Assembly: GCA_039585935.1 (NCBI GenBank)
Contig: JBDGUY010000002.1
Span: forward strand, 1-34,399
Reading direction: 5' to 3'
Length of the DNA stretch: 34,399 nt
DNA from: Gemmatimonadota bacterium
Lineage (GTDB): Bacteria; Gemmatimonadota; Gemmatimonadetes; Palauibacterales; Palauibacteraceae
The position numbers and the translations under genes are program-made. The notes below the pieces were generated by a model that was given only the letters and a program-made list of their open reading frames with translations, made no database searches and was not told the DNA's origin. Shown here in pieces: positions 1,536-8,748 of the stretch. Each line of letters begins with the position of its first letter. Positions within the stretch are counted from its first letter, which is position 1.

Positions 1536-2687
1536 ATGCAGACTGCCCGCAGGACACACGGTTTCACGGAATCCGTGATTCGTGAAATGACTCGCGTCGC
1601 GGACGAATCCGGCGCAATCAACCTGGCGCAGGGTTTTCCCGATTTCCCGGCTCCGGATGTACTCAAGGAAGCCGCGGTCCGGGCGATCAGGGACGATGTG
1701 AACCAGTATGCCGTGACCTGGGGGGCGCCACGTCTTCGCTCGGCGGTCGCGTCGAGCTATGCTCGCTGGTACGACATCGAGATCGATCCGGACCGCGAGG
1801 TCACGATCACCTGCGGGGCCACAGAGGCGATGGCCGCGGTCCTGCTGGCGCTCGTGGACCCGGGCGACGAGGTGATCGTGCTCGAGCCGTTTTACGAGAA
1901 CTACGGCCCTGACGCCGTGCTGTGCGCCGCCAGACCGGTGTTCGTGCGGGTCGAGCCCGGGGAGGGACTCGACCTCGACCGGCTCGCGGCGGCTTTCGGT
2001 CCAGCCACGCGAGCCATCGTTCTGAATACTCCCAATAATCCAACTGGCCATGTACTGACCCGTTCAGAGCTCGAGGCAATCGCCGAGCTGTGCCAACGGC
2101 ACGATGCCTGGGCGATCACCGACGAGATCTACGAACACATCCTGTACGACGGGGTCCACGTGCCCATGGCTTGCTTGCCGGGCATGTCTGACCGCACGGT
2201 GACCGTGAGTGGCGCGTCGAAGACCTTCAGCGTAACCGGCTGGCGAGTCGGCACGATCGTCGCTCCGTCCGGCGCGAGCGGCGCGATACGAAAGGTGCAC
2301 GACTTCCTGACAGTGGGTTCCCCGGCACCGCTTCAGGAAGCGGTAGCCACGGCCCTGGAGACCCTCGGGGACGACTACTACCAGGAACTCGCCAATGCGT
2401 ACCGTCGTCGTCGCGATCTCATGGTCGGAGCTCTGAAGACGGCCGGATTCCTGTGCACTTCCCCGGCGGGTGCGTACTACATCCTGGCCGACTTCTCCGA
2501 AATTTCGGACCAGCGAGACACCGCATTCGCCATGGCCCTGGCCCGGGATGCCGGGGTGGCCCCCGTACCTGGATCGAGCTTCTACGCGGATCCAGCCGAT
2601 GGCAGATCGCTCGTGAGATTCGCGTTCTGTAAGTCGGAGTCACTACTTCGGCAGGCGGCGGCGAGACTGCTCTCTGCATTCTCCTGA
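1536..2687 (+). CDS. PLP-dependent class I/II aminotransferase (YbdL/kynurenine aminotransferase-like)
   Basis: INLAQGFPDF, NTPNNPTG, DEIYEH and SKTFSVTGWRVG (PLP lysine). Confidence 0.93.
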   Translation: MQTARRTHGFTESVIREMTRVADESGAINLAQGFPDFPAPDVLKEAAVRAIRDDVNQYAVTWGAPRLRSAVASSYARWYDIEIDPDREVTITCGATEAMAAVLLALVDPGDEVIVLEPFYENYGPDAVLCAARPVFVRVEPGEGLDLDRLAAAFGPATRAIVLNTPNNPTGHVLTRSELEAIAELCQRHDAWAITDEIYEHILYDGVHVPMACLPGMSDRTVTVSGASKTFSVTGWRVGTIVAPSGASGAIRKVHDFLTVGSPAPLQEAVATALETLGDDYYQELANAYRRRRDLMVGALKTAGFLCTSPAGAYYILADFSEISDQRDTAFAMALARDAGVAPVPGSSFYADPADGRSLVRFAFCKSESLLRQAAARLLSAFS

Positions 2688-2707
2688 TCCGGACCGCGTA
2701 TCCGCGC

Positions 2708-2736
2708 TTGACCACAACATCTTGTGGGGTTATCAT
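2708..2736 (+). promoter_or_regulatory. Sigma70-type promoter TTGACC-N17-TATCAT
   Basis: -35 at 2708-2713, -10 at 2731-2736, 17-bp spacer, in an AT-richer intergenic region. Confidence 0.75.
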
Positions 2737-2759
2737 CCTCCGGGTACAATATATAGCGG
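2712..2759. promoter_or_regulatory. Tandem NrdR-box pair 1
   Basis: CCACAACATCTTGTGG (2712-2727) and GTACAATATATAGCGG (2744-2759) match the acaCwAtATaTwGtgt consensus; the starts are 32 bp apart. Confidence 0.8.
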
Positions 2760-2763
2760 TTTT

Positions 2764-2825
2764 TGTGGAAAACTCGGACCGTTTTTGGGGAAACCGGTGG
2801 AGAAACGGCCGTTGGCCGTGGAAAA
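2764..2825. promoter_or_regulatory. Cluster of co-oriented DnaA-box-like 9-mers
   Basis: TGTGGAAAA 2764-2772 (reverse complement TTTTCCACA fits TTWTNCACA), TGGGGAAAC 2786-2794, GGTGGAGAA 2796-2804 and CGTGGAAAA 2817-2825. Confidence 0.55.
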
Positions 2826-2962
2826 CCGTTCCTCGCCAAGCCCCGGGTCCGGATTGAGAATCTGTTGAGCGGCCCCTTCAACATGGTGGTGTGCAACGTG
2901 AACGGCCGGATGAGGCCGCGGGGTCGCGCACCTGCCGATGCTCCGAGAACGGTGAGGTTGTG

Positions 2963-3175
2963 ATGACTGACTCGATCGGAAGCGCAAATGCCCTTCATGC
3001 TGCTGCCGGCAGGTCAAGCCCGATTCGCAGACCGGCGATTACGGCACGCTGGGTAAGAAATGCGACGGTGGCGAACCGGATCGCGTTCGAGCAGGAGATG
3101 AAACGGGAGAGGCGAATGGGCGTCGATTCCCGTCTCAAGCGATTCGTGAAACAGGTCAGCGCCCGTCAGGCGTGA
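2963..3175 (+). CDS. Small basic hypothetical protein (70 aa)
   Basis: GAGG RBS before ATG 2963; MTDSIGSANALHAAAGRSS...FEQEMKRERRMGVDSRLKRFVKQVSARQA; bracketed by a promoter and an intrinsic terminator. Confidence 0.65.
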   Translation: MTDSIGSANALHAAAGRSSPIRRPAITARWVRNATVANRIAFEQEMKRERRMGVDSRLKRFVKQVSARQA

Positions 3176-3259
3176 GCGGAGAGCACTAGCGAAGCGACCG
3201 CGAACGAGAATACGCCGCAGGCCGGGATTGCGTACAGCGCAGGCCGGCCAACGGGCGCG

Positions 3260-3292
3260 AGGCCCCGGAGCGATCCGGGGCCTTTTCTGTTT
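3260..3292 (+). terminator. Rho-independent terminator
   Basis: AGGCCCCGGA-GCGA-TCCGGGGCCT is a perfect 10-bp stem with a GNRA loop, followed by TTTCTGTTT. Confidence 0.88.
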
Positions 3293-3372
3293 GGGGCCAG
3301 TCCGGGTTACAATCACGCCACATATTCGAGCGAGCAAACGCCAACTGGCCGTTAGTGGAGAGAACCGACCTG

Positions 3373-4656
3373 ATGACCGAAGTCGCACACCGGCAGGAAG
3401 CGCAGCGGAAGGACACTGAAGGCAAGGCCCTGGGGCCACGTCGGCCCACGGTGGTCGTGAATGTCGGCGGCGTGTTGATCGGCGGCGACCATCCGGTGGT
3501 CGTGCAGTCCATGACCAACACCGACACGGCGGATATCGGGGCGACCGTCCTGCAGGTCAGGCAGCTCGCCGAGGCCGGCAGCGAGCTGGTTCGTCTGACG
3601 GTGAACACTCCAGCGGCGGCTCGCGCCGTGCCGGAGATCGCCGAACGCCTGCGAGCTGCTGATGTGACCGTTCCATTGATCGGTGACTTTCATTTCAACG
3701 GACACATTCTGCTTCCCGGGAATCCCGGCTGCGCGGAAGCGCTGGACAAGTACCGGATCAACCCCGGAAACGTGGGTGGTCGTACGTGGGACGCGAATTT
3801 CGCTCGCATCATCGAATGTGCGGCCGAGCATGACAAGCCGGTCCGCATCGGCGTGAACTGGGGATCTCTGGACCAGGCGCTGCTGACTACGATGATGGAT
3901 GAGAATGCCTCTCTCGAGCAGCCTCGTGAGGCGCACGACGTGATGATCGATGCGATGATCGAGAGCGCGATGCGTTCGGCCCGGGTGGCCGAGGAGATCG
4001 GCCTGCCCCACGATCGGATTCTCCTGAGTGCCAAGGTCTCTGGTGTGCAGGACCTGCTGACCGTGTACCGTCGCCTCGCACCACTCTCCGATTACCCGCT
4101 CCACCTGGGTCTGACCGAGGCGGGGATGGGCAGAAAAGGGATCGTGTCGAGCACCGCCGGACTGGCGATTCTCCTCGCCGAGGGTATCGGGGACACGATC
4201 CGCGTCTCGCTCACGCCGACTCCTGGCGGTGATCGAAGTGAAGAGGTCCGGGTCGCGCGGCAGATCCTGCAGTCGCTCGGACTGCGGATGTTCGAGCCTC
4301 AGGTCACGGCCTGCCCGGGCTGTGGTCGGACCACGAGCACGTTCTTCCAGGAAATGGCACAGGAGATCGAGGAGTACTTGCGTGGGCGCATGCCCGAGTG
4401 GAGCGGAACTTACCCGGGAATCGAGAGTCTGAGCGTGGCCGTAATGGGTTGCGTGGTGAACGGTCCTGGTGAATCCCGGCATGCTGACATCGGGATCTCG
4501 CTTCCCGGGAGCTTCGAGGAACCCAGTGCACCCGTGTACGTGGACGGGGAACACCACTCGACTCTACGCGGGGACGCCATCGTCGCTCAGTTCATCGATC
4601 TCCTGGAGGAATATGTGGTGGGGCGGTTCGGGGCGGGGACTGAAGCGATGACCTGA
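3373..4656 (+). CDS. ispG: (E)-4-hydroxy-3-methylbut-2-enyl-diphosphate synthase
   Basis: [50 protein letters not shown] and [10 protein letters not shown]. Confidence 0.98.
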
Positions 4657-7536: not shown

Positions 7537-7929
7537 TCAGCGCAAGAACGTGAAGCGGGATGCGAGTCGCTGCCGGATCTGCTCGGCGAGCGTCTGGAGC
7601 TCCGGGGCAGAGCCTGCGGCCTGCCCGGAATGCCTGGAGCGCCCTGAGTCGCTCCGACTTCCGCGCTGGTCTCGTGAATTCGTAGAGACCTGGTCCGAAG
7701 GCCGTTCCTCCGAGGTCTCGCCGTCGAGCCGCGTGACATTTCGAGCTCGAGGGCCTCGATCCGCTCGTTCGACGTCGAGTTCGACCTCGGCCCCGTCGCG
7801 TAGACTCCGGAAGCCCGAACCCTGGATGTCGGAATGGTGGACGAACACCTCATTGCCATCCTCGAGCCGGATGAACCCCCACCCCTTCTCCGGGTCGAAC
7901 CACTTCACACTGCCACGCAATCGAGTCAT
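7537..7929 (-). CDS. Cold-shock domain protein with C-terminal extension (130 aa)
   Basis: GSVKWFDPEKGWGFI (RNP1), VFVHHSDI (RNP2), GFRSL and GPRARNV, then a ~60-aa tail. Confidence 0.93.
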   Translation of the reverse strand: MTRLRGSVKWFDPEKGWGFIRLEDGNEVFVHHSDIQGSGFRSLRDGAEVELDVERADRGPRARNVTRLDGETSEERPSDQVSTNSRDQRGSRSDSGRSRHSGQAAGSAPELQTLAEQIRQRLASRFTFLR

Positions 7930-8004
7930 GTTCGGCTGATTCCCTTCGTGGTCTACTTTCGGAAACGGTCCAATTCGCGCAGGACGGCCTGGACTCCGTC
8001 GGGC

Positions 8005-8080: not shown

Positions 8081-8110
8081 TTGACCCACAACATGTGGAC
8101 CCGATAGGTT
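8081..8110 (+). promoter_or_regulatory. Sigma70-type promoter TTGACC-N18-TAGGTT
   Basis: -35 at 8081-8086 and TAnnnT -10 at 8105-8110; same architecture as the promoter at 2708. Confidence 0.55.
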
Positions 8111-8132
8111 GTTTGGGCACCAGATCTTGTAC
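8086..8132. promoter_or_regulatory. Tandem NrdR-box pair 2
   Basis: CCACAACATGTGGACC (8086-8101) and GCACCAGATCTTGTAC (8117-8132); starts 31 bp apart; both keep the CnAnATnTnG core. Confidence 0.7.
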
Positions 8133-8352: not shown

Positions 8353-8418
8353 CGTGAGTCGAACCCCTCGGCCCCGGGGTTCCGTTCGATCGCCTACCGG
8401 TGGGTAAGGAGAGGTGCT

Positions 8419-8748
8419 ATGGGAGAGGCCATTCAAATCGCACGGGACGGGTCGTTCCAGCTGGGAGAGCGTTCATACCAGATTCCCGACGTGTTCTCTC
8501 CCCGAGAAGTATTCAGCTATCGAAGGCTGCTGGAACCGATTCCGGACATTCCCGGTGGAACGAGCCTCAGCGGTGAGCAGCGTACAAGGCAGATGGCGTA
8601 TTTCTTCCGCCGGGCAGCCGCATGCGTGATTCCCGGGCTGGAGCCTGCGGAACTCGAGACCCTTCCTTTCGGGACGCTCCAGGCGATGCACGGCTGGATC
8701 GCGGCGCACCGTCCGGAACTCTGTGCCGACGGGCGCCTGATCGCCTGA
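8419..8748 (+). CDS. Hypothetical protein (109 aa)
   Basis: Strong RBS AAGGAGAGG before ATG 8419; globular-looking sequence MGEAIQIARDGSFQLGERSYQIPDVFSPREV...; no family recognised. Confidence 0.75.
   Translation: MGEAIQIARDGSFQLGERSYQIPDVFSPREVFSYRRLLEPIPDIPGGTSLSGEQRTRQMAYFFRRAAACVIPGLEPAELETLPFGTLQAMHGWIAAHRPELCADGRLIA

Follow-up and report, generated by a model that had tools for sequence, protein, structure and literature searches.

A small orphan protein gene of Gemmatimonadota behind a predicted tandem NrdR operator and an array of DnaA-like boxes

Positions 2708-3292 of a 34,399-nucleotide stretch of Gemmatimonadota DNA, called the window below, carry a short transcription unit whose single open reading frame (ORF) encodes a 70-amino-acid protein and whose promoter is overlapped by two sequences of the type bound by NrdR. 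The available parts of two papers describe NrdR as a repressor specific for ribonucleotide reductase (RNR) (PMC13584703, PMC4409342). An earlier note on this DNA had put the unit forward as a possible undescribed member of the NrdR regulon, and four observations support that proposal: nrdR is present in the genome, the sites score highly, the boxes and the ORF are conserved together, and the promoter is laid out like those of the RNR gene nrdJ. We regard the unit as probably a monocistronic, previously undescribed member of the NrdR regulon of its bacterial family, with NrdR binding predicted at both boxes. The window is contig C2 from base 1 of assembly G000 (2,422,902 bases, 64% G+C, 71% complete), which named protein hits and record titles place in the Gemmatimonadota. 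Below, f1 denotes the family of the source bacterium, f2 the sister family and g1 the genus of the source bacterium; G and L numbers stand for genomes and loci.

The operator itself is close to what is known of NrdR sites. The two 16-bp NrdR-like palindromes that the earlier note had seen overlapping the promoter are there (Table 1), as are the promoter, the leader, the ribosome-binding site, the ORF and the terminator, each in its proposed place. The box starts lie 32 bp apart, which leaves a 16-bp linker, and both boxes are partially palindromic and hold all of C4, A6, A8, T9, T11 and G13. These six positions are named as highly conserved in the available part of PMC13584703, which also gives the NrdR linker as 15-16 bp, or one helical turn more, and reports 16 bp as the predominant length. 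The outer box positions are C/G-rich in the Gemmatimonadota lineage. The promoter matches at 10 of 12 positions and is the sole promoter-like site in 2500-3500 (shuffles, 0.2 +/- 0.5); transcription is expected to start near 2743. Its -35 hexamer is invariant in all eight genus genomes of alignment A2, and the -10 hexamer varies, being TATCAT in four of them and other hexamers in four.

Scoring of the boxes relied on related genomes, since the assembly's own nrdJ promoter was not assembled: the only RNR of the assembly is a class II-type large chain on contig C112, whose 5' end and promoter are cut by the contig start. The weight matrix was therefore built from 38 nrdJ-promoter sites of 19 relatives, none of them from the small-ORF unit. 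Searched with this matrix, the two boxes rank first and second in 2.42 Mb, which sets them apart from background, and their scores fall within the training range of 13.1-22.8 bits. As a pair they reach 39.7 bits, the best tandem pair in the assembly; the next, at 24.4 bits, is the only other pair above threshold. An earlier narrow matrix, made from nrdJ sites of the genus only, ranked box 1 third and penalized box 2, and is superseded by the wider one. A gene for the repressor is present as well (nrdR, G000:C25:9660-10097; 178.9 bits against a cut-off of 124.65). Neither nrdD nor nrdB was found in the assembly, a genome that is 71% complete.

Related genomes carry the argument further. Among 44 non-duplicate orthologue loci (L086 and L087 were dropped), a tandem pair of at least 28 bits with 31-32 bp spacing lies upstream of the ORF in 43, and the sole miss, L076, is cut by a contig end; the conservation of the boxes with the ORF on which the earlier note had made its proposal depend is thus borne out. 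The nrdJ promoters of the genus show the architecture of the small-ORF unit, namely TTGACC, a box, a TTAT-type -10 and a second box 32 bp on, and order-wide the nrdJ promoters have tandem boxes 31-32 bp apart. The tandem pair persists even where the ORF stands directly behind nrdJ (G011, G013, G023), so that in these genomes as well the ORF carries an operator of its own. One could suppose that duplication of an nrdJ promoter left the operator behind as a relic without function, and the promoter region does resemble the nrdJ promoters of other f1 genera, with boxes followed by phased GTGGA repeats. Yet the operator is kept in nearly every locus, across many genera, and scores as true nrdJ sites do, while the flanking leader has diverged freely; we give this explanation almost no weight.

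The nrdJ gene also accounts for an absence. The statement that the window holds no RNR gene is correct, but the gene is missing because contig C2 starts there, and relatives have nrdJ upstream. Four sister genomes (G009, G008, G002, G010) have it on the same strand, some 2 to 7 kb upstream. Of the 44 loci, 14 have a same-strand nrdJ upstream that either adjoins the ORF or falls inside the flank retrieved, and in several other genera it is the direct neighbor. The distance is 1-2 kb in some genera and about 2-10 kb in g1, g12 and g13, with an aminotransferase gene and further genes in between. We note that the nrdJ leader of g1 (about 290 nt; L011 850-1160) is itself conserved and matches no Rfam family; three nrdJ loci scanned against Rfam gave no match at gathering score. 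In some relatives, RNR large-chain matches are stretched or split over several kb, with open frames of up to 2255 amino acids (G021:C3:38220-40943, G015:C38:6928-12396, G022:C16:47581-48967), which suggests inteins in their nrdJ.

A second set of repeats follows box 2 directly. The DnaA box has the consensus TTATCCACA or its complement, and four 9-mers with one or two mismatches to it lie on one strand of the leader: TGTGGAAAA (2764-2772), the degenerate TGGGGAAAC (2786-2794), GGTGGAGAA (2796-2804) and CGTGGAAAA (2817-2825), at +4, +26, +36 and +57 from the end of box 2. This is the sole cluster in the assembly of at least three GTGGA[ATG]AA within 150 bp. Across 43 loci, where copies have zero to two mismatches, the 170 nt after box 2 contain 114 boxes on the same strand and 2 on the opposite one, a density of 15.1 per kb, about 60-fold above the 0.24 per kb-strand of the remaining locus sequence. 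The offsets recur at +4, +26, +36, +47, +57, +68, +78 and +89, that is, at multiples of about 10.6 bp. Shared orientation and helical phasing make an arrangement that allows oligomerization, and the phasing favors an oligomeric protein lying along one DNA face over an RNA motif. Such boxes also occur at nrdJ promoters in all six f1 genera examined other than g1, mostly at the same phased offsets; among the nrdJ promoters of 11 f2 genomes there is one stray box, in one genome.

Which protein would read the array is a separate matter, and here we lean toward DnaA. The dnaA promoter of the genus has TTGACAG, TGTGGAAAA in the spacer and TAGCAT (L096 about 2415-2445; L097 likewise), which by its sequence is the classical layout for autoregulation. 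The dnaA-dnaN spacer of G009 and G005 holds CGTGGATAA and TGTGGAGAA beside an AT-rich stretch (L096 3890-4100; L097 likewise) and is likely the oriC of the genus. It seems unlikely, in comparison, that the GTGGAnAA repeats serve another DNA-binding regulator, or work at the RNA level in the leader, where they could, for instance, offer GGA motifs to a CsrA-like protein. Such a view can appeal to the one or two bases by which most copies depart from the classical consensus, to their place in the transcribed leader, to the missing dnaA region of the assembly, and to the dnaA neighborhoods of six examined relatives, which have one to three boxes or, in three cases (G013, G015 and G012), none by the strict pattern. 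It fits poorly, however, with the spacing by multiples of about 10.6 bp and the fixed offset from box 2, which mark one face of a DNA helix and not an RNA, with the perfect TGTGGATAA and TGTGGACAA found at the same offsets in relatives, and with the same 9-mer in the dnaA promoter spacer of the genus. That 2764-2825 might itself be an oriC was considered and set aside, the boxes sitting inside a promoter-leader whose architecture is that of nrdJ.

Taken together with the unit's anatomy, published NrdR biochemistry suggests how the unit is most likely repressed. NrdR loaded with deoxyadenosine triphosphate (dATP) and adenosine triphosphate (ATP) would bind both boxes and block RNA polymerase, as at the nrdJ promoter of the lineage, because the boxes occupy the -35/-10 spacer and the transcription start; at low dATP the unit would be derepressed together with nrdJ. 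A DnaA oligomer on the same-strand phased boxes, which cover transcript positions of about +20 to +81, could add a layer of repression tied to the state of replication initiation. This layer, to which we give somewhat better than even chances, would be analogous to the repression of E. coli nrdAB by DnaA-ATP that is described in the available part of a review (PMC11853086).

The product of the unit is a protein. Differences between orthologues at codon positions 1, 2 and 3 number 303, 148 and 582 in g1 and 340, 219 and 1260 in g13, and indels within the ORF keep the frame, both in the genus alignment and in RNA-library contigs; one of these, a 3-nt insertion TGC at 2997 in the variable N-terminal part, is a strain variant seen in the contigs of three runs. 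The ORF is under purifying selection at the codon level and is real. The alternative in the earlier note, that the leader RNA is the product, is not favored because the ORF has so clear a coding pattern. Gene callers in other genomes begin one codon earlier, at a GTG, which gives 71 residues. The protein has an isoelectric point of 12.0, with 15 Lys and Arg, 5 Asp and Glu and no Cys. Its N-terminal 25 or so residues are variable and its C-terminal 45 or so conserved, with P24, W30, F42, E43, E45, M46, R48 and R50 invariant in alignment A4. AlphaFold2, run with 22 sequences, gives residues 1-27 no structure and residues 28-69 a single helix (mean predicted local distance difference test scores in 10-residue blocks from residue 21: 87, 97, 91, 83 and 88), so that the predicted fold is a disordered head followed by one long helix.

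The description of the protein as one of no known family held up in all profile and structure searches. Pfam, NCBIfam and PHROGs gave no family match for it, the best match of a PDB sequence search had a nonsignificant E value of 1.2, Foldseek returned 0 matches in the PDB, and the best ESM Atlas score, 0.78, is in the range of chance. A search among 1.84 billion proteins turned up only 31 cluster representatives, and neither it nor a search for longer forms yielded an informative relative or fused form. A protein profile detects a single copy of the ORF in each of 60 genomes out of the family's 114, spread over 17 of the 20 genera; an order-wide search found it in 58 of 113 other f1 genomes and in none of 31 f2 genomes. 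As far as these searches reach, it is an orphan family confined to one family of the Gemmatimonadota, f1.

What the protein does can be approached through its company: because both operators are common to the ORF and nrdJ, and the ORF has kept its place downstream of that gene, we see about an even chance that it acts in the supply of deoxynucleoside triphosphates (dNTPs) or in DNA replication, through a conserved helix that binds a partner protein or nucleic acid. A more specific and rather doubtful idea is that it is a functional counterpart of the small eukaryotic regulators of RNR and replication, whose disordered head and single basic helix would bind NrdJ, NrdR, DnaA or fork DNA and so tune dNTP synthesis or initiation. 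Under that idea the protein would be made only when NrdR (at low dATP) and DnaA both release the promoter, and the end of its own mRNA may be sensed through the structured 3' domain described below. A complex prediction for NrdJ of G009 with its small protein scored 0.00 against a mark of 0.32, which is evidence neither way.

Table 1. Features of the unit at 2708-3292 (positions in the window)
Feature	Position	Strand	Details or basis
Sigma-70-type promoter	2708-2736	+	TTGACC 2708-2713, 17-bp spacer, TATCAT 2731-2736
NrdR box 1 (predicted), CCACAACATCTTGTGG	2712-2727	.	in promoter spacer; 22.1 bits, best site of assembly
NrdR box 2 (predicted), GTACAATATATAGCGG	2744-2759	.	over expected transcription start; 17.6 bits, second-best site of assembly
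Same-strand array of DnaA-box-like 9-mers	2764-2825	+	four copies, sequence match
Leader element GTTGAGCGGCCCCTTCAAC	2864-2882	+	nearly invariant in 8 genus genomes
Ribosome-binding site GGTGAGG	2951-2957	+	core GTGAGG 2952-2957 invariant in 8/8 genus genomes
70-amino-acid ORF	2963-3175, stop included	+	codon pattern, orthologues
Structured 3' domain	3159-3258	+	covariation, RNAalifold
Helix P1	3159-3166 with 3251-3258	+	last codons pair with bases just 5' of terminator
AGCGRAG motifs	3175-3181, 3188-3197	+	inside P1, with stop codon
Predicted hairpin	3169-3173 with 3212-3216; 3176-3179 with 3198-3201	+	
Hairpin P2	3220-3225 with 3244-3249	+	73.5% paired across genera, covaries
Intrinsic terminator GAGGCCCCGGA / TCCGGGGCCTT, then T-rich tail	3259-3292	+	fold and pairing

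The unit sits between the end of an aminotransferase gene at 2687 and the start of ispG near 3355-3373, and its 600 nt align over the full length in seven other genus genomes at 71-86% identity. The leader runs for about 220 nt from the end of the -10 hexamer at 2736 to the ATG at 2963. Its conserved element may form a hairpin (RNAalifold pairs 206-212 with 220-227 of alignment A2), and other genera show a related core, GAGCGGCCCC. A possible upstream ORF (frame 2763-2963), which ends in TGATG at 2961-2965, was rejected, its ATG and frame not being conserved in the genus. The terminator stem (3259-3284) has 11 pairs, 8 of them G-C, and a loop of 4; over 17 loci its pairing is 95%, with two-sided changes at 5 pairs.

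From the last codons up to the terminator the transcript is predicted, for part of the family, to form the structured 3' domain. Across genera P1 is 92% paired, with compensatory changes in three pairs and agreement from RNAalifold, and the full 3' structure is 89% paired as against 32-51% with the partners slid. A perfect complement of at least 7 nt occurs in 27 of 43 loci, compared with 1 of 43 in the control, and AGCGRAGCG in 32 of the 43. Hardly any change is seen within the genus g1 between the last five codons and the terminator, and the third positions of those codons do not vary in g1 or g13. The assembly has 18 copies of AGCGAAGCGA, yet the composite of two motifs is confined to this unit and one unrelated place; the 3' domain is therefore not a dispersed repeat. 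Rfam gave 0 matches in the window at gathering score; the best weak match, to BjrC68 over the terminator region, had 23.1 bits against a gathering score of 39. The domain may serve mRNA stability, yield a 3'-derived RNA, mediate autoregulation or couple the unit to ispG.

Two of these roles bear on how the whole unit is read. The first would make RNA the only product, as a leader or a 3' domain (for example a 3'-derived small RNA), with the ORF incidental. The covariation behind the 3' fold, the weak BjrC68 match and the greater conservation, within the genus, of the 3' untranslated part than of the coding part all speak in its favor, but codon positions show selection at the protein level in two genera, the indels observed in the ORF are in frame, and the protein is kept in 17 genera, the 3' domain in only some. 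We consider this reading very unlikely.

The second would make the ORF mainly a cis-acting reading frame for ispG: ribosomes at the last codons would melt P1 and so alter terminator formation or read-through into ispG, the conserved peptide acting within the ribosome in the manner of SecM/MifM-type arrest peptides or leader-peptide attenuation. SecM, MifM and TnaC are leader peptides encoded by regulatory upstream reading frames, and the present unit resembles them in that a small ORF precedes another gene and its last codons take part in an RNA helix. Support comes from ispG, which in 37 of the 44 loci is the next gene downstream, in the same orientation; from P1, which joins the last codons to the bases 5' of the terminator and shows compensatory changes; from the frozen third positions of the last five codons; from g2 and g28, where no terminator was seen between the ORF and the promoter-like motif before ispG; and from RNA-library contig X15, which spans 2884-3419 and crosses the terminator. 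A contig across two genes does not, however, show a single transcript, and aligned genus genomes have a promoter-like -10 hexamer between the terminator and ispG. Neither RNAalifold nor inspection found a conserved antiterminator pairing. The complement and the AGCGRAGCG motif of the 3' domain are absent, among the 43 loci, from g2, g4, g14 and g27-g30, while the ORF, the operator and the adjacency to ispG persist there. The strongest conservation falls 20-45 residues before the stop and not at the C-terminal end, and a long helix is confidently predicted. The ORF is also longer than those of SecM, MifM and TnaC, with its conserved helix far from the stop, a terminator of its own and no alternative pairing found. 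All this leaves the ispG explanation improbable, if less so than an RNA-only product, and we continue to favor a protein-coding unit of the NrdR regulon.

As to the region ahead of ispG, many loci (L053, L064, L073 and L089 among them) have, past the terminator, the motif CTGGAAC, about 17 nt and TAnnAT, which is probably the ispG promoter; in G000 its -10 corresponds to TACAAT (about 3309-3314). In f2, and in two f1 genera without the ORF, g10 and g15, no ispG was seen in the roughly 650 nt that follow nrdJ.

Public RNA libraries offer some hints of expression. Contigs from four RNA libraries, belonging to four studies, cover 2773-3199, and two of them, from different studies, begin exactly at 2773 without a loose end; the shared start hints, weakly, at a 5' end shortly after the promoter. 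No RNA-library contig covers 2300-2552 or 2704-2772 in any of the four runs, nor most of 3200-3800 in X16, X18 and X20 or 3706-3800 in X15, and none of these gaps is evidence of silence.

Several points weigh against the interpretation given here of an NrdR- and DnaA-controlled gene for dNTP supply or replication. The occupancy of NrdR and DnaA in the lineage is deduced from sequence alone. The assembly is incomplete, with its own nrdJ promoter and dnaA unassembled, so that related genomes had to supply both the matrix and the DnaA comparison. The nrdJ promoters of g1 have no GTGGA boxes in the four genomes examined, though the NrdR pair is present, two g28 loci likewise have the NrdR pair but no DnaA-like boxes, and another factor that recognizes GTGGAnAA may bind the array. 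RNA-library contigs give no strand, level or true ends. The family has no relatives of known function, so the suggested function draws on co-regulation and synteny only, and the constant adjacency of ispG fits a cis-regulatory role as well as it fits inherited gene order.

Compared with the NrdR operators of RNR operons (Streptomyces coelicolor nrdRJ and nrdAB; E. coli nrdAB, nrdHIEF and nrdDG), the present one is alike in its paired 16-bp boxes, the six positions, the linker of 15-16 bp, the overlap with the promoter and the presence of nrdR in the genome. It differs in its target, an orphan 70-amino-acid protein that is neither an RNR subunit nor a known accessory, and in its C/G-rich outer positions. 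At E. coli nrdAB the DnaA boxes lie upstream of the promoter, whereas the DnaA-like boxes here lie downstream of the start, on one strand, as three to five phased sites abutting box 2. Otherwise E. coli nrdAB likewise combines NrdR and DnaA boxes at one dNTP-linked promoter, according to the available part of PMC11853086, and nrdJ does the same in most f1 genera. The one NrdR target outside RNR with experimental proof, topA of Pseudomonas aeruginosa, has a single box and is activated (available part of PMC4409342). It and the present gene are both non-RNR genes with an NrdR box, but here a full tandem operator stands in a repressor position, family-wide. The yeast proteins Sml1, Spd1, Hug1 and Dif1 are small, partly disordered eukaryotic regulators of RNR whose expression keeps pace with RNR and replication and which are regulated mainly by degradation. 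The protein described here is similarly small and partly disordered and probably expressed along with RNR; it has no sequence similarity to them, the likeness is one of analogy only, and RNR binding is hypothetical for it. The available parts of the literature on Gemmatimonadota NrdR and NrdR regulons (including PMC12051234) mention no such target, and supplementary regulon tables may hold more.

If the assignment is right, the protein would be a clean and testable candidate for a new factor linking dNTP supply with the start of replication, in a phylum that has seen hardly any genetics, and the promoter a natural example of a composite NrdR-plus-DnaA operator of fixed geometry, with an array common to nrdJ in most genera. 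The regulon of the lineage may also be wider, as suggested by a second NrdR-boxed unit in the same window. Its NrdR-type operator spans 8081-8132 (TTGACC 8081-8086, box 1 8086-8101, box 2 8117-8132, 15-bp linker), has the six conserved positions in both boxes and scores 24.4 bits; its promoter and boxes are conserved in all eight aligned genus genomes. In the seven genomes that extend further there follow a leader of about 290 nt, AAGGAG and an ATG near 8413. The ORF of this unit ends at 8748, had no Pfam match and is followed by a pyruvate kinase gene. Upstream of the second promoter, and divergent from it, a gene with a cold-shock domain (PF00313, E 6e-22) occupies 7537-7986 on the minus strand.

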